DNA from: Candidatus Altimarinota bacterium
Lineage (GTDB): Bacteria > Patescibacteriota > Gracilibacteria > JBDHUY01
Length of the DNA: 64,000 nucleotides
Direction: 5' to 3'
Assembly (NCBI GenBank): GCA_039809385.1
Contig: JBDHUY010000010.1
Span: 1 to 64,000, forward strand
Below, in pieces: positions 6,547-49,471 of the stretch. The notes below the pieces were generated by a model. It was not told the DNA's origin and searched no databases. It saw only the letters and a list, made by a program, of their open reading frames with translations. Both the position numbers and the translations under genes were made by a program. How positions within the stretch are numbered: position 1 is the stretch's first letter; the number at the start of each line of letters is the position of its first letter.

Positions 6547-6592
6547 TACTTTGCGGAGATAAGGTTTTCAGGAGAATAAAAGACGATCTGAT

Positions 6593-19769: not shown

Positions 19770-19856
19770 GGTACTTCTGTTATTGCGAGTTATGGATAAC
19801 ATCAGCGTGTAGTATAAAAGATGCAGCCTCTCCAGAGCAATATGAAAAATTTATCC

Positions 19857-29152: not shown

Positions 29153-29452
29153 AAGATCAGATTGTCATGATGGTACAACGTCTTGTATCCTACTCTTTTT
29201 TACGCTGCTTGAAAAGCGGAACAGTGGTTCGTTTCCTTATGGCAAAATGCTAAATAACGATATCGACAACCATTTTATATTGACATATTGTATGTGCGCG
29301 GATAGAATCTTCATCTTTATTTCCCATATGTTCAGTGTTGTATGGCAATCGGTCTTGATATGCCGGTAAGGTACGGGATGAAAGTATCTTCTGCAAAGAC
29401 AGGGAATCCTTTGGACAGTTCCAAGCGAGATCTGGTATTTGAGAAGACCCAG

Positions 29453-32400: not shown

Positions 32401-34042
32401 AGAAGAAAAAGAAGATATGCACCTCTTAGCGAAGTTGAAACGCGACCCCGATTTTGCCGGAGTAAATTTTTACCGCATCGACGGCAAAGCCGGGAAAAAC
32501 GGCGAGGGCAAAGAACTGTCCCGGGAAAATATTTTAAAAACGGTCAGAAATACTCCCCAGGGTACCAAAAACGTTATCCTGGCTACCATTGATACCGCGA
32601 GTGAAGGGATCGATATGACATTTGCCTCGCGGGTCATTTTCCCCAATTTGCCCTATACCAAAGCCGCGTATCATCAAGCCTTGGGGCGCTTGTATCGTCC
32701 CGGACAGACCGAGGATGTACATGCTTCGGTATTAGTAGCGAATAGTACCACCGAAGAAGGCAACTTCGTATATATCAAGACCAAAGATCTGCTGATCCAA
32801 GAGATACTGGACGGCAAGATCATTACGGATGAGGAATGGGAAGAAATTTCACGCGATTTCAAAACGAGCACCAATAGTTTGCTTTCGTTCATGACCAAGA
32901 CTGATCACCAGAAACTCCTGTGGCTGTGGGGGAACATGGCCGGACGCGGGGCCGAGAGTTTAAAAAACTTCTTTGAACGCTACGGCGGTCAGTATGCCAA
33001 AGAGTTTGTGCGGTTATATATGGAAACTTTTGAGACTTCCTATGGCGGCAGCAACTTTCGCTTTTTATGCCGCAATATTTTGGAACCACTCTTTCAGGAA
33101 CGAGCTGATCTTCAAAAAATCGCTGATCTGGGATCCGGCCCCTTGGCACTAGCTGCCTATCTTGGCCAGGCTCATCCGGATAAAGAGATCCATGCGCTTG
33201 ACTTGAACCGCTTTGCCATTGAGGCGGGCCAGAAAAATCTTGTCGACAAACAAATTCCGTTCAACGGCACCGCCGAAGTCGGCAGTTTTACCAAAACCAA
33301 TTTTGAGAATGGTAGCCAAGATATGGCGATCTGTTCCTTAGCCTTTCACGCCACCCATCATCCCAACCAAGCCAAAAAAAGTGAGGAATCGGAACGAGCT
33401 CAGGCACTGTTTGAGTTCCATCGTATCTTACGCCAAGGCGGCGTGCTCGTACTTCTCGAAAAAAAGAGCATCCTGCAGGATGAAGAGCTGATCCGCTTTG
33501 GCAATGAACTCAAAAACTTTGGATTCCGGATTATTCCGAACCTTACCGGACGGGGATACTGTGCGGATGCCGCCGAGAACGGCAGTACCAAGGAGTTTGA
33601 AAATATTTCGATCGTGTGCGAAAAAATAAGCGAGCCGGTTTTTGATAAGATTAATTTGACGCATCTGGCATTTACGAAAAAGACCAAGAAAGTTCCATCT
33701 GGCACAACTACCCAAGAGCTTCCAGTTGATCAGACGCCGAAAGAATACAAGCACCATCGATTTGAGATCAAACCGCTATTTGAGCAAGAACCAGCTGCTT
33801 CCGACAAAGAGCAACAGGAAAAAGAAAAACAACGAGCCGAACGAGAGCGTATTCACCAACTGCTTCTGACTAAAATTCAGATTCTCATTGTCAAGCAGAG
33901 TAGCTTGGAAAAAACGATTCACGAAATTCGCGAACTCGGCGGCAAAATCGTTAAAACCCGCAATAAATCGGGAAGTAAAGATTACCAGATCTGGTTTGAA
34001 CATACATATCTGGGCAATCTGGAAGTGCTGATAAAAAATTAG
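29453..34042 (+). CDS. Tandem-repeat + SNF2-family helicase + class I SAM methyltransferase fusion
   Basis: 7 N-terminal repeats; DDVGTGKT, LVLCP, DEAH, LSATP, SEGIDM, QALGRLYRPGQ; IADLGSGP..ALDLN..DMAICSLAFH; start could be 29342 or 29378. Confidence 0.88.
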   Translation: MDPEKNVQTTVRLFVQNVFTPGESHHTQHQRIDWKNVPDEELKAMINQYIADHGLTSEQWQRSSWLLENGHRSFYRAMSKWFEKWEKFLEFMEVAQFDWQKIPEAELKAEVEQYIKNHNLSYEQWQSTKWLSRKGHNSFYEAMRQRFQGWENFLVFMRVVQKTIDWKGVPEAELKGEIERYIKNNDLSNEQWQNSRWLSRKGHNSFYEAMRQRFQGWENFLVFMRVVQKTIDWKGVPEAELKAEVAQYIKNNDLSNEQWQNSKWLHENGHQLFYKAMRIRFQGWENFLVFMDITKFDWQEVPEAELKAEIKRYIKNHDLSNEQWQNSYWLGRNSHSPFYLAMRTRFQGWENFLVFMDITKFDWQEVPEAELKAEIKRYIKNHDLSNEQWQNSYWLGRNNHQLFYKAMFKRFKAWETFLRFMGIVIKEQIHWQIIPENQLKATIQQYIHNHKLTPEQWQNSYWLRGNSHNPFYIAMRTRFQGWENFLTFMAVTSNPLQKLTRSLTEDPSLPEDKQRIEEYKNIVSSLGENTLLQFVLATNPELQAKAKEVRLTLKKWIGTTQTAVSSVPPIPSLPEALFLLLPEARELAFVLLRESYFSHFEKKGEDGLLELEQRVSEQPTPTHRSIYQRVWDYYVDILGTEPPPNIRLSPSLHQKMGAHEIQTKKRFLIADDVGTGKTLIAIMAKEQIEAQRRKKSVEKNELYRRKKTLVLCPSEMVETWHKRLGAGQEGYFLPDSSDLPHVVCVNGSKDPAVLEKADYIVMNYDKLDPHTLETLMRLQDLDYLVLDEAHNVKNIDGKWSRYVRQLSLEHASIKDGYTVILSATPLPNKIHEDLPVMLQMLQPEKYPDLAFLKKQINNSNGMLIRSILMHSMLRHTQTEVLHSLPNLIDPLVQGNGGLIRYDLTPAEKALYQSVQEDEHLSGLQKLSKLNQICLDPCFVDSSIAESSKYRELSQVLSHDLTYTDNVVVFVSHFRDGITRDFKEEEKEDMHLLAKLKRDPDFAGVNFYRIDGKAGKNGEGKELSRENILKTVRNTPQGTKNVILATIDTASEGIDMTFASRVIFPNLPYTKAAYHQALGRLYRPGQTEDVHASVLVANSTTEEGNFVYIKTKDLLIQEILDGKIITDEEWEEISRDFKTSTNSLLSFMTKTDHQKLLWLWGNMAGRGAESLKNFFERYGGQYAKEFVRLYMETFETSYGGSNFRFLCRNILEPLFQERADLQKIADLGSGPLALAAYLGQAHPDKEIHALDLNRFAIEAGQKNLVDKQIPFNGTAEVGSFTKTNFENGSQDMAICSLAFHATHHPNQAKKSEESERAQALFEFHRILRQGGVLVLLEKKSILQDEELIRFGNELKNFGFRIIPNLTGRGYCADAAENGSTKEFENISIVCEKISEPVFDKINLTHLAFTKKTKKVPSGTTTQELPVDQTPKEYKHHRFEIKPLFEQEPAASDKEQQEKEKQRAERERIHQLLLTKIQILIVKQSSLEKTIHEIRELGGKIVKTRNKSGSKDYQIWFEHTYLGNLEVLIKN
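29546..30925 (+). repeat. Seven tandem coding repeats of 195-204 bp (65-68 aa)
   Basis: Consensus DWxxVPEAELKAEIxxYIKNxDLSNEQWQNSxWLxxxxHxxFYxAMRxRFQGWENFLxFM; near-identical DNA copies 201 and 195 bp apart. Confidence 0.92.
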
Positions 34043-34073: not shown

Positions 34074-34595
34074 ATGGCAAAAAGAAAAGATGTCAATACT
34101 CCTTCATTTTCCTCTGGAGTGACCAATCATATTATTCCTAGGCAGTCAGATACAAAGGAGATTGGTTCATTACAAGAAAAGGTTCACAACGAAGTCTTGG
34201 CTGCGGTGGATTTTACCAAACCTGCCGAGGAAGTCGCCCGGCAACTAATTGGTAAGAAAATAAAAAGAGTGCTCCAAGACGGCACCACCATCGAAGCCCT
34301 TATTACCAAAGTCGTTGCTTACACCAAAGAAGATAACGAAAAAGGAAAATACAAAGCCATTCTCACAGGAGAGCCGGGAGATCTGATCGTTACTAACACG
34401 ATGGGACATCTGATTATGAATATCATTACCCAGGACAGCAGCTGCATAACCCTGCAGTCAATTCAACACAATGGCAAAGCGATCGAGGGTAAAGGGAAGG
34501 TGAGTAAAGCCTTAGAGATCAAAGGGATTGGGAAGGGGCAAAAAGTGACTGGCGTGAATGTAACGCATCCGGGTGCTGTATTGACCATTGAATAG
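34074..34595 (+). CDS. Divergent AAG/MPG 3-methyladenine DNA glycosylase-like protein, catalytic Glu apparently lost
   Basis: FTKPAEEVARQLIGKKIKR, ITKVVAY (canonical IVETEAY), GEPGDLIV..GHLIMNIIT, GKGKVSKALEI (canonical GPGKLCQALGI). Confidence 0.7.
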   Translation: MAKRKDVNTPSFSSGVTNHIIPRQSDTKEIGSLQEKVHNEVLAAVDFTKPAEEVARQLIGKKIKRVLQDGTTIEALITKVVAYTKEDNEKGKYKAILTGEPGDLIVTNTMGHLIMNIITQDSSCITLQSIQHNGKAIEGKGKVSKALEIKGIGKGQKVTGVNVTHPGAVLTIE

Positions 34596-34864: not shown

Positions 34865-37225
34865 ATGCCTCTTTCTTCCACGAATAATAGCCCACCGGAA
34901 CAATCCGAAAGCGGACCACTCAAAAAAAAAGTTTCCCTGAAGGATTTGATGGATCGCTACAAAGAAACACCGCTCGGAAATGTTTCACGCCGTTTCCAGG
35001 AGGAGTTTTTCACCCCCGCCGCCGCCGCGCTTTTTACTACCTTTGCCGGAGATACGTCGCTCCGTTTTGCAGTAGTGGCAGATGAACAGATCTCAACCGC
35101 CGCCATCAACCCCAAAACCGGCCAGGTAATGATCGGAAAATCGCTGGCACAGGCCTGCCTGGAGGGTGAAAGAAAGAATGACGTCACTTTTAATCATACC
35201 CTACTCAGATTTATCTTTGCCCATGAGATCGGCCATTATAAGGATCTGTGCCATGGAGGAGACAAGCCGATCGGATTCAGCCAGAAGCTCAAGCGGTTTC
35301 AGGAATGGAACGACCGGTTAAATCAAAAGATCTGGGATACCTGGGAAAACGACTTCGGCGCTTTTCACAAAGGCAAAGTCGAACGGGGCGAGAACCGTGC
35401 TTGTCCGCTCCATTTTCTCTATCATGAATTTTTCAACAAACTCGACGATACCCTGGTAAACCGCAGGGCTCAAAAAGGCTTTAAAAGTCTCCGGCCGGGA
35501 AGTTTCCAATTACCCGACTTTTATGAATATACGCTGTTTCAAAGCACCTCCTACAATCGGATGAATACCCCTCTGTGCGGCCAGCTGGGCAACTACCTGC
35601 TCCAAAAGATCGAGACCCCCCATCTGCAGATCGAAGTCGATCCGGAAGTACAGGCTGAACTGGAAGTACAGTACGACTTTAATGGCAAAAAACAGACACT
35701 CTTGCAGATACTGGCCTATCTATCCGATAAGTTTGACTCCCAATACGCCGCGATCCGCTATCCCGACAAGTATGAAAAATATTTTCTGCCCGCGTTTGAG
35801 CGGCTCCTAAAAAAAGACCGTGAATTTAATGAACGGCTGCAGGACTTTATGGAACAACTGGAGAAACAGCAAGATCAGAATGGAGAGCAACCTCAATCGG
35901 GCCAGGGTCCCGCAGGATCCCCTAATCCCTTTTCGCGCCGCTCACAGGAGATTGCGGATAAAGCGCGCGAGGCCGAGAAAAACGATCAGGGCAGAATCAA
36001 AGACCGGCAGGCAAAAAATAAAGAAGAAAGTAAAAGCGATCAGCAAAAAGCCGAGGATCAGATGAGAAAGCAGGCCGCTTCGTTTGCCGGAGAACGAAGT
36101 CTGCCCCTGGAAAAGACACAGCGGTATTTTGAACTCAGAGCCGAGTTTGAACCCGAGATCGAAGAATTGTCCGATTTTATCGTGCATATTCTGCTGCGAA
36201 ATAAAACTACTGCCGTCTCAATTCTGGAAAAACGACAGAAGTCAGGCAACCTGCTAGTGAAAAACCTGATCAAAAAATACGCCGGCATTATCAGTGGGGA
36301 CAAAGAAGCCACCCGGGTATTTGAACGCAAGATCACGACCGATACCTATCGACCGCGTAACATCGGCATGATGTTTCGGATGGTGATCGACAACTCCGGC
36401 AGTATGCGTACGCTAATGCCCGAGCTGGAAGGAGTTTTTGTCATCATCACGCACGCCATCCGGCGCGCCCAGCAGATGCTGATCCAGACATACCACTTAC
36501 CGGAAGTACGTTTGCAATCCCAGATGATCTTATTTGGAAACGCCCGGCAGGAAGGGGATCCCCATTCCGGAGCCCGTCTGATCAAGCCCGGGAGCTCTCC
36601 CGATCAGGAGGAGGGAGATTTTGACGCAGAGCTGATCCAAGCGCTCGGACATATTACCTGCAATGAAGGTACCGAGGACAGCGATGCCTGGAAACTGATC
36701 GGTGAAGAATTATTTGATCCGGGGGAAGTAGAGGTCGAAGGGGACAATGAATCGATTTCGGCTAGTCTGGAAGTGACCGACGGCTTTACTGAGCATCCGG
36801 AAAGAACTCGGCTGTATTTGGAAACCATTCAAGAGTTGGGAATTCATCCCCGCTGTGCCTATATCGAAAACAACCAGCCGCTGGATCAATCTTTATCCGA
36901 CCGCACCCGGAGTATTCGTGAGGAGATGGCCTCTGCCTATCAGAATCCCGCGCGCATGCAAGAACTCCAGGAGCAGCTTCGCAGCGTCGAGCAACAATGG
37001 TATCTGCAAAACGAGCAATTGCTTGAAAACAATCCGTCTACAGAAGTGTGGGGTGATAGAATGTCGATCATGAAAGATACCCGCGATATTCTTCCCCTGG
37101 TGGAAATCATGCTGATGGAGGCAGTAAACCAGGTCGACGAGCAACTTGAACAAAATCAGCATTTTTCGCTAACCGGGCATTTCACAGAGAAGGCTCTACA
37201 AAGAGGAAAGGATGCTGCGAATTAA
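34865..37225 (+). CDS. HEXXH metallopeptidase-like + vWA (MIDAS) domain protein
   Basis: FAHEIGH, FNKLDDTLVN, Q/E-rich linker, VIDNSGSM (DxSxS), EGTED and VTDG. Confidence 0.85.
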   Translation: MPLSSTNNSPPEQSESGPLKKKVSLKDLMDRYKETPLGNVSRRFQEEFFTPAAAALFTTFAGDTSLRFAVVADEQISTAAINPKTGQVMIGKSLAQACLEGERKNDVTFNHTLLRFIFAHEIGHYKDLCHGGDKPIGFSQKLKRFQEWNDRLNQKIWDTWENDFGAFHKGKVERGENRACPLHFLYHEFFNKLDDTLVNRRAQKGFKSLRPGSFQLPDFYEYTLFQSTSYNRMNTPLCGQLGNYLLQKIETPHLQIEVDPEVQAELEVQYDFNGKKQTLLQILAYLSDKFDSQYAAIRYPDKYEKYFLPAFERLLKKDREFNERLQDFMEQLEKQQDQNGEQPQSGQGPAGSPNPFSRRSQEIADKAREAEKNDQGRIKDRQAKNKEESKSDQQKAEDQMRKQAASFAGERSLPLEKTQRYFELRAEFEPEIEELSDFIVHILLRNKTTAVSILEKRQKSGNLLVKNLIKKYAGIISGDKEATRVFERKITTDTYRPRNIGMMFRMVIDNSGSMRTLMPELEGVFVIITHAIRRAQQMLIQTYHLPEVRLQSQMILFGNARQEGDPHSGARLIKPGSSPDQEEGDFDAELIQALGHITCNEGTEDSDAWKLIGEELFDPGEVEVEGDNESISASLEVTDGFTEHPERTRLYLETIQELGIHPRCAYIENNQPLDQSLSDRTRSIREEMASAYQNPARMQELQEQLRSVEQQWYLQNEQLLENNPSTEVWGDRMSIMKDTRDILPLVEIMLMEAVNQVDEQLEQNQHFSLTGHFTEKALQRGKDAAN

Positions 37226-37384
37226 GATACGAGCCTCACATAGAATGAACAACAAATATAGCGGCTATATTAGCAAGATATAAAACTATGGAAGGACTTA
37301 TAAAAAAGCCGAAAATACGGTATAATAGGAAGAATTATTAAAAACCAACTTTCGATCATTTATCTTTCCCTAACCTTTCTCAGT

Positions 37385-40084
37385 ATGCAAACAAACACAA
37401 ACAGCAACCAGGGCGCCGAACTGATACGTGAAAATACCAGCCGTCTCCTGTCGGGACGCAAACGCGTACTGGAGCTGGCCCGGCAACTGATCGCCGGACT
37501 CACCCGCAGTGAACTGTCGGACATAATGCCGGAGATTATTAAATCCCAGACGGCAAAAGACTTCTATGAGGAATTTGGTCTGGAAAGAGCCGCGGGAACG
37601 GAAGAAGAAATGATATTCGGCGACCTCAAGGAAGAATTGGAAGTGCTCGAAACGATGGGATTTGCCGACGGAAGCCTGTTTGATCTGCAGGAAGCGGAGG
37701 AACCGGTGGATGTCGCCGCAGAAGGTGCAGTGAAAGGGCTAAATTTTAAACACTCCCAGCAATTGGACTCCCGGCTTCATCAGAGTCTGATCAAGATGGC
37801 CCGTCTGGAACGAAAAAAGAAAAAAAGCGGGTCCGAACAGAACTACCTGAATCAGCAACAAATCCCTGAACCGAGCGATATACTAAAAAGTACTGAGCCG
37901 GGGTCAGAAACCCCCGAAATATCTGTCAAACGGGCCAGTATCCGGGACAAAATGAAGACAGCGTTACAACAAAGAAAATATGACTCACCTCAGCGTTCCA
38001 GCATTTCGCCTGCCAGTCAGCGCGCCGTACGGGGAATAGACGAATATCGCGAAACAGACAGAAAGATCCGCGAAGCGGTCGATGAGAACTATTTCGACTG
38101 GATGGCCCATTATATGTTGAAACTAAACGGCCTGAGAAAAAGTCTCGCCAAGAGCGGAAAACTGGTCCTCACTCCCTATGTGGAACGGATCATCGAGGAA
38201 GTACGGGACAGTGAGACCGCCACGGGCAAGATCGCCTGCCTGAAAGGCGATCTGGGAGCCGGAAAAACCGAGATCGCTCTCCATGTCGGACGGGAACAGA
38301 ACCGGAAAAATCTCCCTGCGATCAAGGAGAAGCTCGAACAAAACGGCTATACGATTCTCTCATCTTCGGATCTGAAAAAAGAGCTCGGCCAGCTGGAAGG
38401 TTCAAGGCGGGAAGAGATGGTCCGCGAGTTTGTACAAAAAGAAGGGAGCCGTATTTCCTCAATCCGAAATCTGAAGCAAAGTGAAGCCGAAAGTTATGTT
38501 CTGAACGATCCTGAACTTTTATTTCAGGCTTTTCAAAAACATACATTCAAAAATGAAAAGGTCATTGACGAGCAAACCGCCATCGAGCCAATTTTGCTCT
38601 CGGGACACAAAGAGTTTGATCCGGCCGAAATGATCGGCGGCTTCGAAATTCAGCACGAAGAACTGGATCTGAGAAAAGTTACCGAAGTCTACCGGGAAGG
38701 ACTCAGAACAATCGAAGCGATACCAGGATTGGATGAGCATACGAAAAAAGAATTACAGGATCTGGCCAAAAGCAAGATTGCGAATCTGGGAGGAGTAGAG
38801 ACTCACGCCTATCTGGGCAAACTATTTCAGGCCATGCAGATGGGAAAAACACTGATCATCGACGAGTTCAATGCCATTCCGCACGAAATACTGATCATTC
38901 TCAACTTTTACATGACCCGCCGGCCCGGCGACGTGATCCAGCCACCCATTAATAATCTCCCTCCCTTCAAAGTGCAGGAAGGATTCAAGATCATTTTCAC
39001 CGGCAATATTCCCAAAGAAGGCCAGACCGGCTATGTCGGACGCCAGGCCTTGGATGCGGCCTTCCGCAATCGCTTGAACGAGATCGAAGTAGATTATCTG
39101 CCCAATTCCCGCGATGACGATATATTTGTGAACGCGAAAGGAGAATTCGATCTTCCCAGAGAATTTCTGCCGGGTACCGACACCGGAACAAAAACTATTG
39201 AAGAAGCAAAAAGCGAATATCTTTCGTCACTGAACAACGAATATCGAGCCACGATCCGTCACGGTGGAAAGCTGGAACTGGCCGAAGGAGGTGAGAAAAA
39301 AGTGGAAGGAAAGGAAAACGACGAATTGTTTCAGGTTCTGGTGACCTTCGGACTGCCCAAAAGTCTGGTCGGACGACTGCCAGAGAATTATTTTGCCAAA
39401 GTCTACCAGCTGGCCCGCATTGCCCGGATCATCCAGGATGCCTATTCGGGACAACTCGTCGATGAAAAGTATTACAAGGCTGTGGGGAAAAAACCGCAGA
39501 GTTTTTTGAAACGCGGGATTGCCTCGATGCGCGATCTGACAACGATTATTCGAGCCTGGAAAGTGGACGGGTACTCACGGGAGCTCGACTATTATGTATG
39601 GAAATACTTTATCCAAAATCTGGAAGGGACAGAACAGGCCTGGATCTACGGTTTGTTCAAAGAATTCGGCGGTTTTTTTGACGACAACAATGTCTTTCCA
39701 CAGCAGGAAAAAGATATTCACCAGCTCCGGCTGGTCGGACGCATCATTACCGACCAACAAGTTCCGGATCAGAAACCAAAGCTAAAAACGTTCAGCCAAC
39801 AGGAGGTTTTAGAAAATTTGTTTGGTCTGGCGCCGCTGCCAAAAGAGGATGAGCAGCAGATAATTCAAAGCGTGGAAGTGAGGGGTGAAGACCTGGAAAC
39901 ACAGAAACAGGAGTTGCTGGACAAGATCGATACCCTCGCAGTGTCGCTTCAGATTTTCATCGACAGGTTTGTGGTAAACGTCATGATGTCCAACTGCAAG
40001 GATCATTGCGATATAGGAGCGCTGAAAGGTATGCTGAGCGAAACGGCACTATCGAATCTGCGCAACCGTGAATCAACAATGTGA
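37385..40084 (+). CDS. MoxR/dynein-like AAA+ ATPase with long helical inserts
   Basis: Walker A GDLGAGKT, Walker B LIIDEFN, IIFTGN (sensor 1), RQALDAAFRNR (Arg finger) and SMRDL (sensor 2). Confidence 0.88.
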   Translation: MQTNTNSNQGAELIRENTSRLLSGRKRVLELARQLIAGLTRSELSDIMPEIIKSQTAKDFYEEFGLERAAGTEEEMIFGDLKEELEVLETMGFADGSLFDLQEAEEPVDVAAEGAVKGLNFKHSQQLDSRLHQSLIKMARLERKKKKSGSEQNYLNQQQIPEPSDILKSTEPGSETPEISVKRASIRDKMKTALQQRKYDSPQRSSISPASQRAVRGIDEYRETDRKIREAVDENYFDWMAHYMLKLNGLRKSLAKSGKLVLTPYVERIIEEVRDSETATGKIACLKGDLGAGKTEIALHVGREQNRKNLPAIKEKLEQNGYTILSSSDLKKELGQLEGSRREEMVREFVQKEGSRISSIRNLKQSEAESYVLNDPELLFQAFQKHTFKNEKVIDEQTAIEPILLSGHKEFDPAEMIGGFEIQHEELDLRKVTEVYREGLRTIEAIPGLDEHTKKELQDLAKSKIANLGGVETHAYLGKLFQAMQMGKTLIIDEFNAIPHEILIILNFYMTRRPGDVIQPPINNLPPFKVQEGFKIIFTGNIPKEGQTGYVGRQALDAAFRNRLNEIEVDYLPNSRDDDIFVNAKGEFDLPREFLPGTDTGTKTIEEAKSEYLSSLNNEYRATIRHGGKLELAEGGEKKVEGKENDELFQVLVTFGLPKSLVGRLPENYFAKVYQLARIARIIQDAYSGQLVDEKYYKAVGKKPQSFLKRGIASMRDLTTIIRAWKVDGYSRELDYYVWKYFIQNLEGTEQAWIYGLFKEFGGFFDDNNVFPQQEKDIHQLRLVGRIITDQQVPDQKPKLKTFSQQEVLENLFGLAPLPKEDEQQIIQSVEVRGEDLETQKQELLDKIDTLAVSLQIFIDRFVVNVMMSNCKDHCDIGALKGMLSETALSNLRNRESTM

Positions 40085-40125
40085 CACAAAAAAATGTCAG
40101 ATTTTAATTGGTATGTATCACTCCC

Positions 40126-41544
40126 ATGCACCTGTGCGAAAAACTTCAACAAGGCTTGCTTGAGATCAAACAGATCAGCGAAAAACTGAATAGACTTCAA
40201 GATGAACTGGGAAGTATTCAAACGGTTCAAGAGTTGCAAGCAAAAGAGTCACAACTAAACGAGGCTATCTCTCAATGTGAATCGAAACAGAAGGAGTTGG
40301 AAGGGTTAAAGTACAACTTTCCAGCCGAAGTGTTACAAATGTTTGGAATTGAACTGCATGAAGAGAACCTGAATAAAGTTCAACAGGATGAAGATGGGTA
40401 CTGTGTCAGTATTGAATTTCCTCTTAAAAATATACAAAGTATTCCAGCAGAGATTCAGTACCTACGGAAGCTTACCAGTCTTAATCTAAATGACAACAAA
40501 CTAACAGTCCTCCCCCCTGAGATTGGGAAATTGTTGGAGCTGAGGGAACTGAATCTAAGGTACAACAAACTAACAGTCCTTCCCCCTGAGATTGGGAAAT
40601 TGTTGGAACTGAGGGAACTGAATCTCTTTAGCAACCAACTAACAATTCTCCCCCCTGAGATTGGGCAATGGGAGAAGCTGGAGAAACTTAATCTCTCTAG
40701 CAACCAACTAACAATTCTCCCCCCTGAGATTGGGAAATTGTTGGAACTGAGGGAACTGAATCTCTTTAGCAACCAACTAACAACCCTCCCCGTTGAGATT
40801 GGGAAATGGGAGAATTTGGAGGAACTTGTTCTCTCTGGTAACCAACTAACAGATCTCCCCACTCAGATTGAGAAATGGTTGAAACTGAAAAAACTTCATC
40901 TTGCTCGCAACCGGATACACCTCCCCCTTGAGATTAGGAAGTTGTTGGAACTGAGGGAACTTAATCTTGCTAACAACCAACTAACAACCCTCCCCCCTGA
41001 GATTGGGCAATGGGGGAAGCTGGAGATAATCAATCTCGCTTACAACAGACTAACAGATCTCCCTGCTGAGATTGGGAAATTGTTGGAACTGAGGGAACTT
41101 AATCTCGCTAGCAATCAACTAAAAACCCTTCCCCTTGAGGTTGGGGAATTGGAGAATTTGGAGAAACTTAATCTTTCTAACAACCAACTAACAGTCCTCC
41201 CCTCTGAGATTGGGAAATTGTTGAAACTGAGGGAACTTAATCTCTCTAGCAACAAACTAACAATTCTCCCCCCTGAGATTGGGGAATTGTTGGAGCTGAG
41301 GGAACTGAATCTCTCTAGCAACCAATTAACAGATCTCCCCATTCAGATTGGAGAATTGGAGAATTTGGAGAAACTTAATCTTTCTAACAACCAACTAACA
41401 GATCTCCCCACTCAGATTTGGGACTTGCCGAAACTGCAACCTTTTAGTTTCAGTAACAATCGCTTTTCTGAAGATGAATGGATTAAAAATAAAGCAGCCC
41501 TATCGGCGGCGTTTGCCCGACGTTCTGCGGGCAGATATCCATAG
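40126..41544 (+). CDS. LRR protein 1 (MHLC coiled-coil leader + ~15 LRRs)
   Basis: 23-aa repeats LPPEIGKLLELRELNLxxNQLT; leader shared with the paralogs. Confidence 0.92.
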   Translation: MHLCEKLQQGLLEIKQISEKLNRLQDELGSIQTVQELQAKESQLNEAISQCESKQKELEGLKYNFPAEVLQMFGIELHEENLNKVQQDEDGYCVSIEFPLKNIQSIPAEIQYLRKLTSLNLNDNKLTVLPPEIGKLLELRELNLRYNKLTVLPPEIGKLLELRELNLFSNQLTILPPEIGQWEKLEKLNLSSNQLTILPPEIGKLLELRELNLFSNQLTTLPVEIGKWENLEELVLSGNQLTDLPTQIEKWLKLKKLHLARNRIHLPLEIRKLLELRELNLANNQLTTLPPEIGQWGKLEIINLAYNRLTDLPAEIGKLLELRELNLASNQLKTLPLEVGELENLEKLNLSNNQLTVLPSEIGKLLKLRELNLSSNKLTILPPEIGELLELRELNLSSNQLTDLPIQIGELENLEKLNLSNNQLTDLPTQIWDLPKLQPFSFSNNRFSEDEWIKNKAALSAAFARRSAGRYP

Positions 41545-41546
41545 AT

Positions 41547-41681
41547 TTAAAACAACACTCCCCTGAGATTAGGAATCTTAAGGAACTGATTCGACTTTAT
41601 CTTGAGGAGAATGATTTTATTGCGGTGAAAAAAAAGCAAAATAGAAAACTATTTAGTCCGACGTTCAAGATATCTTTTTGA
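41547..41681 (+). pseudogene. Orphan last LRR plus C-terminal cap of an LRR gene
   Basis: Translates SPEIRNLKELIRLYLEENDFIAVKKKQNRKLFSPTFKISF*, matching the caps of LRR2 and LRR4; no start codon. Confidence 0.7.
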
Positions 41682-41689
41682 CTACCCTC

Positions 41690-42544
41690 ATGCACCTGTG
41701 CCAAGAACTACAACAAGGCTTGCTTGAGATCAAACAGATCAGCGAAAAACTGAATAAACTTCGAAATGAACTGAGAAATATTCAGATGGTTCAAGAGTTG
41801 AAAGAAAAAGAGTCGCAACTGGACCAATCGATCTCTCAATGTGAATCGAAACAAAAGGAGTTGGAAGAGGAAAAATACAACTTTCCAGCCGAAGTATTAC
41901 GCATGTTTGGACTTGAGGTAAATGAAGAGAATCTGAAGAAGGTTCAACTGGATGAAGGAGGGTACTGTGTCGGTCTTGACCTATCTGGACAAAAAATACA
42001 AACGATTCCGGCAGAGATTCAGTACTTACGGAGACTGACTTCTCTTGATCTTTCTTACAATCAACTGACAGAGCTGCCCCCCGAGATTGGGAATTTGTCG
42101 AAACTGGAGAATCTTAATCTCTATCATAACCAACTGAACCTTCTCCCATCAGAGATTGGGTACCTCAGGGAATTGACCTTACTTAGTCTCGGAATTAACC
42201 AACTGAAAGTTCTGCCACCTGAGATTGGGAACTTACCGAATCTGGAAGGGCTTGATCTTAATGATAATCAACTAAAGGCTCTGCCACCTGAGATTGGGAA
42301 CTTACTGAATCTGAAAGAGCTTTTTCTTGATAACAACCAACTGAAAGTTCTGCCACCTGAGATTGGGAACTTACCGAATCTGGAAAAACTTTTACTTAAT
42401 GGCAATCAACTGAAGGATCTACCATCAGAGATTGGGAAACTCGAGAAACTATTTGAACTGAATCTCTATGGGAATTCTCTAATTGAAGTAGAGAAAGAGA
42501 AAATTAAAAAACTATTTGACACTCCCGTCAATATATACGTTTGA
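41690..42544 (+). CDS. LRR protein 2 (MHLC leader + ~7 LRRs)
   Basis: MHLCQELQQGLLEIKQISEKLN; LPPEIGNLxNL repeats. Confidence 0.92.
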   Translation: MHLCQELQQGLLEIKQISEKLNKLRNELRNIQMVQELKEKESQLDQSISQCESKQKELEEEKYNFPAEVLRMFGLEVNEENLKKVQLDEGGYCVGLDLSGQKIQTIPAEIQYLRRLTSLDLSYNQLTELPPEIGNLSKLENLNLYHNQLNLLPSEIGYLRELTLLSLGINQLKVLPPEIGNLPNLEGLDLNDNQLKALPPEIGNLLNLKELFLDNNQLKVLPPEIGNLPNLEKLLLNGNQLKDLPSEIGKLEKLFELNLYGNSLIEVEKEKIKKLFDTPVNIYV

Positions 42545-42554
42545 TTATCCCCCC

Positions 42555-43649
42555 ATGCACCTGTGCGAACAATTACAACAAGAGTTTGTTCAAATCAAAC
42601 AACTGGCCTTGTGGCTGGACGATTTGAGGAAGCAGATTGAATTGGCCCAAAGCATCAAAGATCTTGATCCCATCTATCCAAGGCTTCCGGAAAAACTGGC
42701 CGTGTTCGAGAAACAAAAAATTGAAATGGAGCAGAAAAGCTGGAATTTTCCCCGGAATATATTAAAAATGTTTGGACTCGAAGTTACAGAAGAAAACCTG
42801 AAAAAAATCACACTCGATGAACATGGCTATTGTGTGGAAATCAATTTTTCTTCCCAAGGCCTAAAAAGCATCCCCGCAGAGATCGTACACCTTACAAAAC
42901 TAAAGAAACTTAGCCTTTCAGAAAACCCGCTCCAGACGCTCCCTCCTGAAATTGGACAACTTACCGGATTGACTGAACTCTATCTCAATTATAACGCAAT
43001 AACAACTCTCCCGTCGCTCCCCAATTTAACCATACTCCAGCTTGCTTTTAACAAACTCAGAGCTTTTCCAGGTGAGATTGAGGATTTTTCCAGCTTGAGG
43101 GAACTTACCCTGGGTTTTAACCAGTTCCAAACTTTTCCGCCTGCAATCGGAAAGCTTACCGGACTAACGAAGCTCGACTTCGATAATAACGAACTCACCA
43201 CTCTCCCGCCCGAAATCGGCAATCTCTTCCAATTAGAAGAGCTCTCCCTTACCAAAAATAAACTTAGCACTCTCCCGCCCGAAATCGGAAAGCTTGCCGG
43301 ACTAAGGGAGCTCTACTTCATTGATAACGAACTCACCACTCTCCCGCCCGAAATCGGCAATCTCTTTCAATTAGAAGAGTTCTACATTAGCAACAATAAA
43401 CTCAAAGATCTGCCAATCGAGATGGAGAAACTTTTGAACCTACAGAAATTTCATTTCATGAATAACCAGATTAAGACTATCCCGGAACAGATCAGAAAAC
43501 TCCCCAATCTGACTGAATTCTATCCCTATGGAAATCCACTTGAGAAAAACGTAGACATAAGCTGGTCCGATAAATTGTATAATCTCTTCCCGGACAAAGT
43601 AAAGCGACACATTAAAAACATACTTCAAAAAGTTAAGAATCGTCCTTAA
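42555..43649 (+). CDS. LRR protein 3 (divergent MHLC leader + ~10 LRRs)
   Basis: MHLCEQLQQEFVQIKQ..WNFPRNILKMFGLE; LPPEIG repeats. Confidence 0.92.
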   Translation: MHLCEQLQQEFVQIKQLALWLDDLRKQIELAQSIKDLDPIYPRLPEKLAVFEKQKIEMEQKSWNFPRNILKMFGLEVTEENLKKITLDEHGYCVEINFSSQGLKSIPAEIVHLTKLKKLSLSENPLQTLPPEIGQLTGLTELYLNYNAITTLPSLPNLTILQLAFNKLRAFPGEIEDFSSLRELTLGFNQFQTFPPAIGKLTGLTKLDFDNNELTTLPPEIGNLFQLEELSLTKNKLSTLPPEIGKLAGLRELYFIDNELTTLPPEIGNLFQLEEFYISNNKLKDLPIEMEKLLNLQKFHFMNNQIKTIPEQIRKLPNLTEFYPYGNPLEKNVDISWSDKLYNLFPDKVKRHIKNILQKVKNRP

Positions 43650-43660
43650 CCAGATATCCC

Positions 43661-44788
43661 ATGCACCTGTGCGAAGAACTGCAACAAGGCTTGCTTGAGA
43701 TCAAACAGATCAGCGAAAAACTGAATAAACTTCGAAGTGAGTTGGGAAATATTCAGACGGTTCAAGAGTTGCAAGAAAAAGAGTCGCAACTGGACGAGTT
43801 GATCTCTGAGTGTGAATCGCGACAAAAGGAGTTGGAAGGGTTAAAATACAACTTTCCAGCCGAAGTGTTGAACATATTTGGATTGGGGAGGGATAGTGTG
43901 TTGGGAGTTAATCAGGATGAAGATGGGTATTGTGTCGATCTTCATTTTAATCATAGGAATATACAAAGTATTCCAACAGAGATTCAGTATCTGCAAAAAC
44001 TCACTAGGCTTAATCTCGAGTACAACCAACTGACAACCCTTCCCTCTGAGATTGGGAACTTGCTGAATCTGAAAGAACTTTGTCTCGGATATAACCAACT
44101 AACAATTCTCCCCCCCGAGATTGGGGACTTGAAAAATCTGGAAACTCTTAATCTCATTCAAAACAGACTAACACTTCTCTCCCCTGAGATTGGGAACTTG
44201 AAGAATCTGAAAGAACTCCGTCTCGATGACATCGGACTAACAATTCTCCCCCCCGAGATTGGGGACTTGAGAAATCTGGAAACTCTTAATCTCTATAAGA
44301 ACAAACTAACAATCCTCCCCCCTGAGATTGTAAACTTGACGAATCTGGGAAGGTTGAATCTCTCTAGCAACCAACTAACAACCCTTCTCCCTGAGATTGG
44401 GGACTTGACGAATCTGAAAGAACTTTGTCTCAAATACAACCAACTAATAACCCTCCCCCTTGAGATTGGGAAATTGTCTAATCTGGTAAAACTTGATCTC
44501 TCTTGCAACAGACTGACAGCTTTCCCCTCTGAGATTGGGGACTTGACGAATCTGAAAGAACTTTGTCTCAAATACAACCAACTAATAACCCTCCCCCTTG
44601 AGATTGGGAAATTGTCTAATCTGGTAAAACTTGATCTCTCTTACAACAAACTGACAGCTTTTCCCTCTGAGATTGGGAACTTGCTGAATCTGAAAAAGCT
44701 TCTTCTTAAAGATAATAATTTTTTTTCTGAACAAGAGAAGGATAAAATTAAAAGACTATTTGATTCGAAGGTCCTAATATATTTTTGA
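43661..44788 (+). CDS. LRR protein 4 (MHLC leader + ~11 LRRs)
   Basis: MHLCEELQQGLLEIKQ; internal 138-bp duplication starting at 44391 and 44529. Confidence 0.92.
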   Translation: MHLCEELQQGLLEIKQISEKLNKLRSELGNIQTVQELQEKESQLDELISECESRQKELEGLKYNFPAEVLNIFGLGRDSVLGVNQDEDGYCVDLHFNHRNIQSIPTEIQYLQKLTRLNLEYNQLTTLPSEIGNLLNLKELCLGYNQLTILPPEIGDLKNLETLNLIQNRLTLLSPEIGNLKNLKELRLDDIGLTILPPEIGDLRNLETLNLYKNKLTILPPEIVNLTNLGRLNLSSNQLTTLLPEIGDLTNLKELCLKYNQLITLPLEIGKLSNLVKLDLSCNRLTAFPSEIGDLTNLKELCLKYNQLITLPLEIGKLSNLVKLDLSYNKLTAFPSEIGNLLNLKKLLLKDNNFFSEQEKDKIKRLFDSKVLIYF

Positions 44789-44796
44789 CTACCCCC

Positions 44797-44906
44797 ATGC
44801 ATCTGTGCGAAAAACTCCAACAATGACTGCTTGAACTCAAAGCGCTCATGCAGGATTTGAATAATCTTCGAAACAGATTACGAAATATTCAAACAGGTAA
44901 AGAGAC
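44797..44906 (+). pseudogene. Truncated fifth LRR-family leader with a nonsense codon
   Basis: MHLCEKLQQ*LLELKALMQDLNNLRNRLRNIQTGKE; TGA at 44824; similarity ends after about 36 codons. Confidence 0.8.
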
Positions 44907-45005
44907 TCGAAATACAACTGGTACGCGCTATGCCACATCCCCTTGTCCTTTCTCTGTAAAGTTGTATAGTCAAGGGAGATTATCTGATTTTTCGCGAAAA
45001 CCAGT

Positions 45006-45773
45006 ATGGCCAATCACGCCGAAACGGTTTCCTGCGCGCTCTGTCATAAAAAGCGGCTTTCCACGCATGGTTTGCATGCGGAAATGATCCATGCCCCGGT
45101 TCTGGAATTAATGCAGAAAAAATATCCGGATATCCAAATGACTGATTTTATTTGTCAGTCCTGTGTCAACAAGTATCGTTCGGGGTATGTGCAGGAAGTT
45201 CTGGAAGAAGAACGGGGCGAACTTTCCACACTGGAACAGCAGGTGATCGACAGCCTCAAAGAACAGGATGTGCTGACAAAAAATATCAACGATGAATTCG
45301 ATCAGCAACGTACCTGGGGGGAAAAAGTCGCTGACGGCATTGCCAACTTTGCCGGCAGCTGGGCTTTTATCATTATCTTTATTGCGATATTGATCGCCTG
45401 GATCATACTCAATGGAACGGAGTATCTTTTTCGGGCTTTTGATCCGTTTCCGTTTATTTTGCTGAATCTGTTGTTGTCCTGTATCGCCGCGCTTCAAGCT
45501 CCTGTTATCCTGATGAGCCAAAACCGCCAGGCCAAACGCGACCGTCTGCAAGCTGACAACGACTACGGGGTAAATCTGAAAGCCGAACTGGAAGTGCGGC
45601 ATTTGAACTGGAAAATGGATAAATTGCTTTCCCATCAATGGCAACGTCTTCTGGATATTCAAAGGATTCAGACCGAATTGATGGAAGAGGTCTTGAAAAA
45701 AACAAAAAGCGGGAATGTTAAGATCTCCAGAAAGCCTAAAAGTGTGACATTGCAAGCAAATAAGCTTTCATAA
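45006..45773 (+). CDS. DUF1003-domain membrane protein
   Basis: ADGIANFAGSWAFI, FDPFPFILLNLLLSCIAALQAPVILMSQNRQ and NLKAELEV. Confidence 0.92.
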   Translation: MANHAETVSCALCHKKRLSTHGLHAEMIHAPVLELMQKKYPDIQMTDFICQSCVNKYRSGYVQEVLEEERGELSTLEQQVIDSLKEQDVLTKNINDEFDQQRTWGEKVADGIANFAGSWAFIIIFIAILIAWIILNGTEYLFRAFDPFPFILLNLLLSCIAALQAPVILMSQNRQAKRDRLQADNDYGVNLKAELEVRHLNWKMDKLLSHQWQRLLDIQRIQTELMEEVLKKTKSGNVKISRKPKSVTLQANKLS

Positions 45774-46810: not shown

Positions 46811-49471
46811 TTATTCGGACAGCGTCGCCGACTTTTTTTCACTCAGATCGGCAATCGAAAGAGCTTTGATCACGGAGAGCGAGATAGTATACAGATTGTC
46901 GCCGATATACAGAATCCGTTGAATGCTCTTGTTATAATCCGGATACCAATATTCTCCTCCTGCTTTGATGTCCTCGGCGGTGAAATTGGTCGTTTTGCCC
47001 TTCAGCGTAAAACCCTTAGCCAGATCAATCGTATATACATAGGCTCCCTGGAAGACGGCTTTTTCGGTTCCATATTGGGCTACACAGCTGTTTGCTCCGT
47101 CGCAGTCGGTTGTACAAACCTGAATTCCGTTGCTGGTCGTACAATTGGTCGGAACGCAAATCTTCTGACAGGAGGCGGGGCAGGTCGAATATTTGAAATC
47201 CGAACAAACGTTGCCCGTCGTAGAATCGTAGACCGTTACCGGAAACGACAGGAGATTTTTCTCCTTGTCGAACAAGAGAGCTTTGTGGTTGTACAGGACG
47301 TCGCTGGTAGTTCCCCCCCGTCCGATCCGTTCGGTAAACATCTCTTTCGGATTTTTGATGTTCGTAACGTCGAACAAGCTCATTTTCAGTCCCGTAAAAG
47401 CTCCGTTGGCCGGATCGACCTCGTTGCCGAATCCGATAATATGATTCTCGTCGTACGGATGGAGATAGCTGCTGTATCCTTCTATTTTCAGGCTGCCTCC
47501 CACCACAGGTTTGGTCGGATCGCTCAGATCGAGCGCAAACAACGGATCGACCTGGCGGAAAGTAACTACATACCCCCGATCACCCATAAAGCGAGTCGAA
47601 TAGATCGTTTCTCCGGGAGCCAGATCTTCGATCTTGCCGCTAATGTTCATATCTTTATCGAGAATATAGACATGATTCAGCGTTTTGGTCACAGGGTAGT
47701 AAGAGGTACTGGTCGTAGCGATTCTAAAATTTCCAGCGTGTTCGTCCATACTGAATTGATCGAGCACTCTTCCCATGACGTTTCCCCTGGCGATAAATTG
47801 CACATTCCCGTTGCTCAGTCCGAATTTATAGACAGCGGTCTTTTCCGGGGCCGGATAGTATAAGTAGGGTACCCGTTCGGTGTCAGCCGGCTGAAACCCT
47901 CCCGTCCAGTCGACATCCGTGACAAACATATTCCGGTCGGAAACAAACAGGTTATCGCTGTTGCCTACCAGTACCTGACGCGAAACTTCTTTATTTGTAT
48001 CGTTTAAAGGGATGCCGGCCACGATCAGAAAGTTGGATCGGTCGCCTTTCGGGAATACCAGCACATCGCCGCACTGGGCAATATCTTTTTCCTGAGCATC
48101 TTTGGAATCCTTCATGCGTGGCATCAGTTCTTCCGGATCAAATGTCGGTACCGGATAAGGATAGGGATAGGGCGCCGTGATGCCTGGGGCGGCTTTTTCA
48201 TAATAATACGGACCCGGATAGGGATATGGATAGGGACGGTTAACATACTGACTCATCGTGAGATACAGATTGTTATCGATGCGTCGGCTGTTCATCGCAT
48301 AGGCTTCAAAGTCGATCGTGCGGCTGATCGTCGGTGCTTTCGGATCCGATACGTCGATCATATAGACGCGGGTTTTGCTATTACGGTCGTATAGCGTATA
48401 GGCAGGATATCCGGCAGCAACCTTTTCGTCGGTATAAACCGGCGATATATACGCATTTCCGATCAAAATGAGTTGTTTGGCGTTCAGGTACATTTCTGTC
48501 GGATAAAATGTTTCGTTTTCGTTTCCCAGTTTCATACGTACCAGCTCTTTTAATCCTTCGACAGGTACCGCCTGTATGACGCGTACGGTATCGTTTTTCA
48601 GCATGTAGATCTTGTCTCCATCGGTTTTTACCATATCGGCTTCATCGACCCCGGGCACTTGGATATTGGTCGTCGAATATCCGCCGCCGCCACCTCCTCC
48701 TGATTCGGCTGCCACGGGTGTAGCTACTCCATTGCTTGAACCGTCTTTTGCCCCTTGTCTGTTGAAGTAATTGATCTTGTCGTTCGGATAAAAAAGTCTG
48801 TCTTGCAATTCCTGGCAACTGCTGGGTTTTACGAATCCTTTCCCGTCGATTTCGTCATAAGTTCGGCTGGCTTCGTTAGTGACGTTGGCTTTTAAGCGGT
48901 AGGTCATCATGGCCATATCCGAACGGGTGAGTTTCTGGTCGAAATACTCGACCGAGAGAGGAAGCGCTTTTTTCTGTGCCAATGCTGTAAAATAGCCTTT
49001 ATACCAAATGGAGGGGTCCGTCTGTGTGCCAATCTTATAGGCATTTACCAAAATCTTGCTGGCTTCGGAGGCGGTGATCGTCTCGTTTAAGCGGAATGTT
49101 CCGTCGCTGTATCCGCTGACCCAGCCGGCTTTTTTTGCCGCACAGATATATTGGGCTGCCCAGTGTTTTTCGTCCACATCGCTGAATCCGCATTTGGTCT
49201 CTTTTAAAGGTAATCCTTGCGCTGCGGCGATGATCTTGACGAACTCGGAGCGCGCGATCGGGTTTTGCGGATAAAAGTACCCGCCGGCGTAGCCTTGCAC
49301 CACATTATTCTCTTTGAGGTACTTAATGGCCGCATAGTCGTAGACAGTCGGATCGGTTACATCCACAAACGGTCCGCTCGTCGTTGCCGGGCTTGTACTC
49401 TGCTGTGCTTGCGTTACGGGCACGAGTTGAAACAGGATTGCCAGCATCAGGGCGATGGCGCCTTTTTTCAT
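46811..49471 (-). CDS. Secreted SLH + beta-propeller domain protein
   Basis: Signal peptide; SLH (GYSDGTFR); YSTTNIQVPGVDEADMVKTDG, DQFSMDE, YVVTFRQVDPLF and LKIEGYSSYLHP. Confidence 0.9.
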   Translation of the reverse strand: MKKGAIALMLAILFQLVPVTQAQQSTSPATTSGPFVDVTDPTVYDYAAIKYLKENNVVQGYAGGYFYPQNPIARSEFVKIIAAAQGLPLKETKCGFSDVDEKHWAAQYICAAKKAGWVSGYSDGTFRLNETITASEASKILVNAYKIGTQTDPSIWYKGYFTALAQKKALPLSVEYFDQKLTRSDMAMMTYRLKANVTNEASRTYDEIDGKGFVKPSSCQELQDRLFYPNDKINYFNRQGAKDGSSNGVATPVAAESGGGGGGGYSTTNIQVPGVDEADMVKTDGDKIYMLKNDTVRVIQAVPVEGLKELVRMKLGNENETFYPTEMYLNAKQLILIGNAYISPVYTDEKVAAGYPAYTLYDRNSKTRVYMIDVSDPKAPTISRTIDFEAYAMNSRRIDNNLYLTMSQYVNRPYPYPYPGPYYYEKAAPGITAPYPYPYPVPTFDPEELMPRMKDSKDAQEKDIAQCGDVLVFPKGDRSNFLIVAGIPLNDTNKEVSRQVLVGNSDNLFVSDRNMFVTDVDWTGGFQPADTERVPYLYYPAPEKTAVYKFGLSNGNVQFIARGNVMGRVLDQFSMDEHAGNFRIATTSTSYYPVTKTLNHVYILDKDMNISGKIEDLAPGETIYSTRFMGDRGYVVTFRQVDPLFALDLSDPTKPVVGGSLKIEGYSSYLHPYDENHIIGFGNEVDPANGAFTGLKMSLFDVTNIKNPKEMFTERIGRGGTTSDVLYNHKALLFDKEKNLLSFPVTVYDSTTGNVCSDFKYSTCPASCQKICVPTNCTTSNGIQVCTTDCDGANSCVAQYGTEKAVFQGAYVYTIDLAKGFTLKGKTTNFTAEDIKAGGEYWYPDYNKSIQRILYIGDNLYTISLSVIKALSIADLSEKKSATLSE

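Follow-up and report, generated by a model that had tools for sequence, protein, structure and literature searches.

A midasin/MoxR-like ATPase, a MIDAS-zincin adaptor and an array of leader-tagged leucine-rich repeat proteins as a candidate three-part system in a Candidatus Altimarinota genome

Gene content of the locus and its two large proteins

The stretch analyzed here (the window) comprises 64,000 nucleotides of Candidatus Altimarinota bacterium (positions 1 to 64,000 of contig JBDHUY010000010.1, assembly GCA_039809385.1) and contains, between 34865 and 44788, six open frames that all run in the same direction. They encode a protein combining an HExxH domain with a vWA domain, an AAA+ ATPase, and four leucine-rich repeat (LRR) proteins that begin with a common N-terminal leader, and we consider them here as a candidate three-part system. 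The main elements described for this locus in a first-pass annotation were all recovered where that annotation had placed them. The co-orientation holds for all genes from 37385 to 44910, with short gaps of 9-146 bp between them, and promoter and terminator scans of the locus gave counts at or below the shuffle expectation. The genome to which the window belongs is 1.87 Mb in size, distributed over 26 contigs, and 95% complete. The features of the locus are the following, with the basis of each assignment in brackets.

34865..37225, + strand: 786 aa, proposed as an adaptor-protease; zincin-like N-terminal domain with HExxH, then a linker rich in K and E and a MIDAS vWA domain at the C-terminus (motifs, family alignment, fold matches)
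37385..40084, + strand: AAA_5 ATPase (dynein/midasin/MoxR-related), 899 aa, with conserved N- and C-terminal extensions (Pfam, family alignment)
40126..41544, + strand: LRR1, leader (residues 1-96) and about 15 LRRs (Pfam LRR, leader alignment)
41690..42544, + strand: LRR2, leader and 7 LRRs (Pfam LRR, leader alignment)
42555..43649, + strand: LRR3, divergent leader and about 9-10 LRRs (Pfam LRR, leader alignment)
43661..44788, + strand: LRR4, leader and 11 LRRs (Pfam LRR, leader alignment)
44797..44910, + strand: relic of a fifth leader with no LRR part after it (leader match, E 1.2e-7)
40101-40125, 41665-41689, 42530-42554, 43636-43660 and 44772-44796: repeated C-rich junctions (sequence comparison)

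In the 786-aa protein, HEIGH occupies residues 120-124 and DNSGS residues 509-513. An alignment of 25 family members shows no variation at H120, E121, H124, D509, S511, S513, T638, D639, and G640, i.e., the HExxH motif and the full MIDAS (metal ion-dependent adhesion site; DxSxS and TDG) are retained in 25/25 aligned relatives, in agreement with the first-pass description of a HEXXH/vWA gene with an intact MIDAS. In the wider set of family proteins, DxSxS is present in 33/33 and HExxH in 28/33. The Pfam scan of the 786-aa protein gave no match, and comparison of the family profile with solved vWA/I-domains gave a match to TRAP (E 3.9e-11). In the AlphaFold model (pLDDT 78), the predicted fold of the vWA domain is nearest to the MIDAS domain of human MDN1 (Z 21.4, root mean square deviation (rmsd) 3.0, 221 aligned residues), followed by Rea1-MIDAS (Z 20.9), while NorD scores Z 17.1 and generic vWA domains score at most 17.9; the top Foldseek match of the modeled domain is the NorD vWA domain in NorQ-NorD complexes (E 6.9e-6). 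The N-terminal domain, modeled by itself (pLDDT 77, pTM 0.78), is predicted to form a three-stranded sheet (strands 46-70) followed by a helix (86-108) that bears the HExxH motif. Its top 50 fold matches are mostly zinc metallopeptidases, among them M1 aminopeptidases, LTA4 hydrolase, M13 neprilysins, minigluzincins, Ste24, and BepA. None scores above Z 7.4, and the best of them (Z 7.4, rmsd 5.3, 191 aligned) lies under the caution line of 8. Foldseek returned nothing at E 0.001 or below for this domain, and no Pfam peptidase family matched the window protein or its 25 relatives. Based on the invariant HExxH on a helix after a sheet and on the list of fold matches, we describe the modeled N-terminal domain as zincin-like. 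A DUF2201-type combination of zincin and vWA, considered as a candidate relative, was rejected, being absent from the Pfam scans of the window protein and the 25 relatives.

The 899-aa protein matches Pfam AAA_5 at E 4.6e-5 (23.9 bits versus a curated cut-off of 22), and AAA_5 was found in 27/27 members of the ATPase family (best E 1.1e-15). Its Walker A motif reads GDLGAGKTE and is followed after about 190 residues by the Walker B motif LIIDEFN. Across the family alignment, Walker A (GxxGxGKT), Walker B (hhhhDE), and the sensor and Arg positions are invariant, and the AAA+ assignment of the first-pass annotation is confirmed by the Pfam match and the intact Walker motifs. The best match of the family profile among solved sequences is midasin (E 0.0011). 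Thus, both large proteins point to the midasin/MoxR branch, in which an AAA_5 ring is combined with a client-gripping MIDAS domain. PADLOC gave no match for either the vWA or the AAA protein.

Tagged binders in the window and in related loci

A Pfam scan of the four LRR proteins detected LRR families only. Counted by pattern and spacing, the repeats number about 15 in LRR1, 7 in LRR2, 9-10 in LRR3, and 11 in LRR4, close to the 15, 7, 10, and 11 originally read from the letters. The leader, taken from the ATG of MHLC, spans 96-98 residues and contains 30 invariant columns, including MHLC, LQQ, NFP, FG, and DE.GYCV, which upholds the description of four co-oriented LRR genes with a common N-terminal region. 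Between LRR1, LRR2, and LRR4, mutual identity is 73-75% in the leaders versus 55-57% in the LRR bodies; the leader of LRR3 shares 35-45% identity with the others (36% with that of LRR4), no better than its body (42-44%). The LRR bodies are 69-bp tandem arrays (for LRR1, Tandem Repeats Finder gives a 69-bp period and 13.7 copies), and the approximately 20 nt 5' of every leader ATG are repeated and C-rich (...ACCCC/TC ATG) and lack a purine-rich Shine-Dalgarno sequence. Twice, the gene before the junction ends in ...IY(F/V)*, indicating a stop-to-stop duplication unit, and the repeated junctions together with the 69-bp tandem bodies indicate that the array grew by head-to-tail duplication. The relic consists of MHLCEKLQQ, an in-frame TGA, and 28 further leader-like codons, with 58% identity to leader residues 1-38. 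Two relics had been claimed earlier; we find a single one, at 44797-44910, whose two pieces were probably counted apart. In its own genome, the leader occurs only at this locus (5/5 matches), and all 21 LRR_8 matches fall inside 40465-44722, i.e., within the four LRR genes. Averaged over 19 residues, Kyte-Doolittle hydropathy does not exceed 0.95 in any of the four LRR proteins and peaks at 1.16 in the vWA protein and at 1.48 in the ATPase; by this hydropathy scan, none of the six proteins contains a stretch sufficiently hydrophobic for a signal peptide or a membrane helix, consistent with the original remark that the LRR genes lack a signal peptide. The PADLOC model LmuB matched LRR2 and LRR4 (E 1.5e-3 and 7e-5); we took these weak coiled-coil matches to be compositional and rejected them.

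Pattern scans based on the ATPase alignment retrieved 46 related metagenome loci, two of which are duplicates of each other, and one genome contig from a Candidatus Peribacteria metagenome-assembled genome (L007). Genes in these loci were called crudely as the longest non-overlapping open reading frames (ORFs) and labeled by hidden Markov models (HMMs) built from the window and its relatives. With the window excluded, a vWA-zincin gene adjoins the ATPase gene in 25/47 fetched loci, and many of the remaining ones are contigs too short to show the vWA gene. The pair is also present in 6/6 regions taken from genomes of the phylum and in a locus from a viral collection. Counts of genes in the related loci, including those for a reverse transcriptase (RT), are as follows.

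All 47 loci (window and duplicate out): vWA gene in 27, leader-type genes in 22, RT in 10
28 of the 47 loci, with at least 5 genes: vWA gene in 19, leader-type genes in 16, arrays in 11, RT in 6

The largest cluster of neighboring proteins (c2; 40 members in 16 loci) combines a common N-terminus with unrelated C-termini, and two leader types, A and B, are mutually homologous (hhalign probability 97.7%, E 2.4e-12). Within each locus, the window and the duplicate locus counted, we compared the first 100 residues of every neighbor gene. Leader-sharing genes made up 67/180 of the genes within four genes of the pair versus 7/126 farther off, and 16 of the 32 loci with at least 6 called genes held at least two of them. 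The largest arrays comprise 11 copies (L013), 9 copies around the pair (L070), and 7 copies (L073). In the phylum-genome regions, which come from six of seven genomes, two loci (L072, L074) have four tagged paralogs each, one (L071) has a tagged LRR protein, and further leader types occur. An LRR protein is the third component in L071, where it follows an N-terminal leader that starts MPNSTSLC..., and also in L027. In a complete single-contig genome (G338; L076 1-3766 / L078, contig ends), an 892-aa vWA-family gene precedes two type-B leader genes, of which one is full and the other truncated. An IMG/VR contig (L079, 2584-9662) carries a diversity-generating retroelement (DGR)-type RT together with the ATPase and a vWA-family gene, and this pair is flanked by two paralogs whose N-termini are identical; given this cellular-type layout, its viral label may be doubtful.

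The tagged proteins of the relatives include DGR-hypermutated binders, as indicated by the position of the variable regions (VRs) at the 3' ends of their genes. Seven pairs of template repeat (TR) and VR were found in four loci; each pair differs by 16-22 mismatches, and 89-100% of these fall on TR adenines. One VR lies at the edge of a contig and the other six at the 3' ends of leader-tagged genes, so that every VR inside a called gene lies at the 3' end of such a gene. The DGR-adjacent genes comprise an RT matching RVT_1 (E 8e-25) and an Avd-like gene matching bAvd (E 1e-10). The hypermutated C-terminal regions are presumably C-type-lectin-like. In the window's own genome (95% complete), RVT_1 has no match, and the LRR paralog array stands where the relatives have DGR targets. 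No Pfam match was obtained for 56/65 tagged proteins, and every match that was obtained is to a fold of the repeat or binder kind (WD40, LRR_4, LRR_6, WG_beta_rep, GXGXG, and, weakly, HEAT_2); LRRs of three types are among the binders. This mostly Pfam-less character agrees with the observation that DGR targets in candidate phyla radiation (CPR) bacteria have no recognizable N-terminal domain (Roux et al. 2021, PMC8144416); here and below, statements on this paper, on Kaur et al. (2020), and on Dore et al. (2024) refer to the accessible portions of their text.

Any relation of the window leader to the other leaders would be more distant. The window leader HMM matched nothing in the metagenome loci at E <1e-5. 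By hhalign, it aligns with type B at 33% probability over 21 columns in register (M-x-x-C-x-E-L/I...) and with a Cys-type set at 44% over 23 columns, a set chosen for its N-terminal Cys, so that the invariance of the Cys there reflects selection; a control against the ATPase and vWA profiles gave 0.2%. Three sequences could form a bridge: a 348-aa protein with the start MNLCE and a DGR-target-like C-terminus, encoded by the Peribacteria genome containing L007, which was the sole AAA relative from the genome-contig scan; the leaders of L034, which start MSNCKEIQQ as compared with MHLCEELQQ in the window; and the tagged LRR protein of L071. At the level of sequence, these comparisons are suggestive of homology between the window leader and types A and B, and a functional analogy would be independent of homology. 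Many leaders contain a Cys close to their start, in the first 3-8 residues (MSEC, MLEC, MNC, MSNC, MHLC; e.g., L017, L023, L034, L072, and the window), and it is missing from the type A, L070, L073, and L074 leaders. One idea is that this Cys might act as a zinc ligand, a 'cysteine switch' on the zincin. A homotypic adaptor, with an EAD-like copy of the leader in the AAA or vWA protein, was rejected at the sensitivity of hhalign (at most 0.3%).

Close relatives of all these proteins are rare. In a word-index search covering 5.8 billion proteins, the vWA protein had one relative (45% identity) and the ATPase three (about 40%); the leader had none in the same index, where not even the window's own proteins came up, and its close relatives are either rare or not indexed. 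When the leader profile was run exhaustively with HMMER against 1.84 billion representatives, it matched a single protein (P0007, E 2e-6), which starts MHIC and likewise carries LRRs. The vWA protein was found in 0 of 40 genomes of the same class, and the ATPase family in 7/400 other genomes sampled across the phylum and in 1 of 2.9 million viral contigs. The genomes of the relatives are small (0.7-2.0 Mb), and the AAA/vWA pair is a conserved family of small-genome bacteria that apparently belong to the CPR. A phage-borne system was rejected, as the viral collection yielded only one relative and its layout is cellular-type. The locus is contained in activated-sludge or wastewater DNA runs of five studies, and no RNA run is listed among the public runs with the locus. 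The contigs obtained from the public DNA runs are short and low in depth; they do not differ from the window and show neither joints nor variants.

Upstream of the vWA gene, a 1566-aa protein (29342-34042, + strand) comprises about seven W-rich N-terminal repeats of approximately 65 residues, an SNF2 helicase core, and a C-terminal methyltransferase, and matches the PADLOC helicase models HmaA, DrmD, and DpdE at E 1e-9 to 1e-12; it may represent a defense-type gene directly upstream of the system. It is followed by a 173-aa gene (34074-34595, + strand) with a weak methylpurine-DNA-glycosylase match. At the downstream end of the array, a DUF1003 membrane protein (45006-45773, + strand) starts inside the ORF running on from the relic leader. 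Two large S-layer homology (SLH) proteins, DUF4331+SLH at 2835-4805 (- strand) and Beta_propel+SLH at 46811-49471 (- strand), suggest an SLH-anchored cell surface in this small-genome bacterium. Oxidative pentose phosphate genes (6-phosphogluconolactonase, G6PD, 6PGD) and phosphoglucose isomerase lie at 5830-8005, 12289-13704, and 18456-19802.

Proposed mechanism and competing explanations

Gene content, conserved motifs, fold relations, and the recurrence of the association across genomes are direct observations, and with them in hand we consider it probable that these ten kilobases form one three-part system, composed of a midasin/MoxR-like motor, a MIDAS-zincin adaptor, and interchangeable tagged binders. 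Soluble binders marked by a constant N-terminal leader would be the clients or the sensor arms of the pair; here these would be the four LRR proteins with their different repeat numbers, and in the relatives DGR-hypermutated, WD40, WG-repeat, HEAT-like, and other LRR proteins. By analogy with Rea1/midasin and NorQ-NorD, the MIDAS domain may grip the leader, while the ATPase would provide the force by which the tagged protein is remodeled or released. The HExxH domain might cut the leader, or it might be the output protease that acts after the binder has met its ligand. Binding, the direction of signaling, and the biological target are inferred. As no export signal was found and the distribution across genomes is patchy, we slightly favor a role in intracellular recognition or conflict over one in the maturation or display of host-binding proteins. 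DGR-linked MoxR systems have been proposed as intracellular invader sensors (Kaur et al. 2020, PMC7159879; Dore et al. 2024, PMC10907252).

Several observations weigh against the three-part system, or limit how far it extends. The related loci were seeded on the ATPase, and leaders away from the pair are therefore undersampled. One genome (G123) has leader copies also away from the pair, on contigs C7, C1, and C4, so that independence of the leader from the pair, a possibility raised with the original proposal, was observed in part. The complementary possibility, that the pair usually lacks arrays, has a similarly mixed outcome: the pair stands without an array in L069 and no leader-type gene is in view in 12/28 related loci with at least 5 genes, but 16/28 have such genes. 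In G338, the vWA gene and the leader genes occur with no AAA gene nearby or genome-wide (E 1e-10). Concerning the leader itself, the type A and B HMMs gave no match in the window's own genome, hhalign of the window leader with type A reached 5%, and the matches with the other sets span just 21-23 columns at a probability of at most 44%. In addition, given the divergence of LRR3, the pattern of constant leader and variable body is, as judged from these alignments, partly a product of recent tandem duplication. The zincin fold call likewise draws on matches with Z of at most 7.4, below the caution line of 8. The original proposal that the AAA/vWA-peptidase pair is tied to interchangeable tagged binders is strongly supported by the recurrent arrays and by the DGR-diversified tagged targets, but not as a universal association; the docking of the leader on the machine that it also envisaged is putative.

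An alternative that we regard as unlikely, though it has several points in its favor, assigns the system to maturation or display: the leader would be a processing or export tag that the zincin removes, the ATPase would unfold or load the binders, and the LRR proteins and DGR targets would serve an episymbiont as host-attachment adhesins. The conserved HExxH implies a real protease, the constant tag is followed by the conserved NFP..FG..DExGYCV, a possible mark of a cleavage site, and the small genomes of the relatives (0.7-2.0 Mb) fit a host-dependent life; the 2017 study by Paul et al. reportedly proposed CPR DGR targets for attachment. However, no part of the system has a signal peptide, lipobox, or membrane segment (hydropathy in a 19-residue scan exceeds 1.6 in 0/32 vWA, 1/52 AAA, and 0/37 c2 proteins), no secretion gene is consistently linked in 54 gene maps, and the solved MoxR/midasin machines work on complexes inside the cell. 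Much less probable, in our judgment, is a coincidence in which an independent, recently duplicated LRR family happens to lie beside a housekeeping MoxR-vWA chaperone pair, the 'leader' being simply its non-repeat N-terminus. Such a history would be expected to leave three of four leaders 73-75% identical and the pre-ATG junction repeated, as found here. It also accommodates the failure of the other loci's leader HMMs to detect the window leader and the near-uniqueness of the latter (one match in 1.84 billion representatives and none by word index). Against coincidence stand the recurrence of the layout in many independent families and loci whose binder domains are unrelated, two of these loci with a tagged LRR neighbor, the gaps of 9-146 bp and the co-orientation over 37385-44910, and the confinement of the LRR repeats in the window's own genome to the place adjoining the pair.

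Beyond the three-part system as such, we tentatively put forward, as one possible reading, that small-genome CPR bacteria use a modular form of recognition. In it, a library of tagged binders would be read by a midasin-like motor that is split and has its own protease, and the library would be diversified either by a DGR, through point hypermutation of one scaffold, or, as in the window, by LRR paralogs that differ in repeat number. If this were true, the system would be a prokaryotic counterpart of split receptors of the NLR/VLR type (nucleotide-binding LRR and variable lymphocyte receptors), with a tag instead of a gene fusion coupling the sensor to the machine. The lack of a recognizable domain in CPR DGR targets would be explained by an N-terminus that acts as a docking tag, and these unannotated proteins would gain a functional context. 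A large group of uncultured host-dependent bacteria would then wire such a system differently, connecting free-standing, exchangeable binders through a short tag to a midasin-like ATPase and a MIDAS-zincin adaptor, and tag-dependent binding or cleavage would offer a handle on whether hypervariable proteins are used for defense or for finding hosts.

Comparison with known systems

The first-pass annotation recognized no named system in this architecture, and our literature search, whose reach did not include Paul et al. 2017 (on CPR DGRs) and supplements, likewise found no such arrangement. The closest described relatives are the vWA-MoxR-VMAP systems, which share with the locus a MoxR-like AAA+ protein, a vWA protein with a MIDAS, and a third element that varies (PMC7159879). 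DGR-diversified ligand-binding domains are often linked to them, which has been read as invader sensing via a hypervariable binder (PMC7159879, PMC10907252), and a metallopeptidase is occasionally found among the vWA-fused domains (PMC7159879). Most descriptions of MoxR-vWA ternary systems and of DGR-diversified sensors come from multicellular bacteria and have the binder as a fusion with the vWA or NTPase component, and the CPR was omitted from the multicellularity statistics of Kaur et al. 2020 (eLife, PMC7159879). In contrast to these systems as presented in the accessible text, the binder is here a separate, N-terminally tagged protein, the VRs lie in the tagged genes, and the binders are arranged in arrays of up to 11 paralogs. 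In the vWA protein, the N-terminal zincin-like domain is a constant component rather than a rare effector; apart from it and the linker, the vWA protein bears no effector or FGS/CLec fusion. In a further difference from homotypic EAD adaptors, neither the AAA nor the vWA proteins contain a detectable copy of the leader. VMAP was not among the Pfam matches of 10 window proteins or of 65 and 27 neighbor proteins, and PF20028 (VMAP-C) had no match in the window's own genome in a search that also matched no control genome. Both features of the two-gene MoxR/AAA_5-vWA module, an AAA_5 ATPase with intact Walker motifs and an adjacent vWA protein with a complete MIDAS, are present.

Midasin/Rea1 ranks first among the fold matches of the vWA domain, and midasin also ranks first among the solved sequences matched by the ATPase. 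In Rea1/midasin, the MIDAS ion grips the N-terminal ubiquitin-like (UBL) domain of Rsa4 or Ytm1 and the AAA_5 ring pulls. The logic proposed here would be alike, with a MIDAS that grips an N-terminal handle of the client and an ATPase that pulls, although the leader looks helical from its sequence rather than UBL. The systems differ in that the ATPase and the MIDAS domain are here separate bacterial proteins, with one AAA module per chain versus six, and in that the adaptor carries a zincin-like domain and the clients are binders instead of ribosome assembly factors. In NorQ-NorD and CbbQ-CbbO, a client is remodeled through a vWA adaptor. They resemble the present pair in having neighboring genes for an AAA_5 ATPase and a vWA adaptor, and NorD heads the Foldseek list, but they serve one fixed client (NO reductase or Rubisco) and have neither a peptidase domain nor arrays of tagged binders.

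With CPR DGR systems, the related loci share the RT, the Avd-like gene, the TR, and adenine-mutated VRs at the 3' ends of the targets, whereas the window's genome lacks an RT match and has LRR paralogs instead. The common leader of the targets and their linkage to a zincin-vWA protein and an AAA_5 ATPase go unmentioned in the accessible text of Roux et al. 2021 (PMC8144416). Compared with all these systems, and with no VMAP found, the locus and its relatives appear from their sequences to represent a new variant of the MoxR-vWA theme, in which a constant zincin-like domain resides on the adaptor and the binders form free-standing, tagged arrays.

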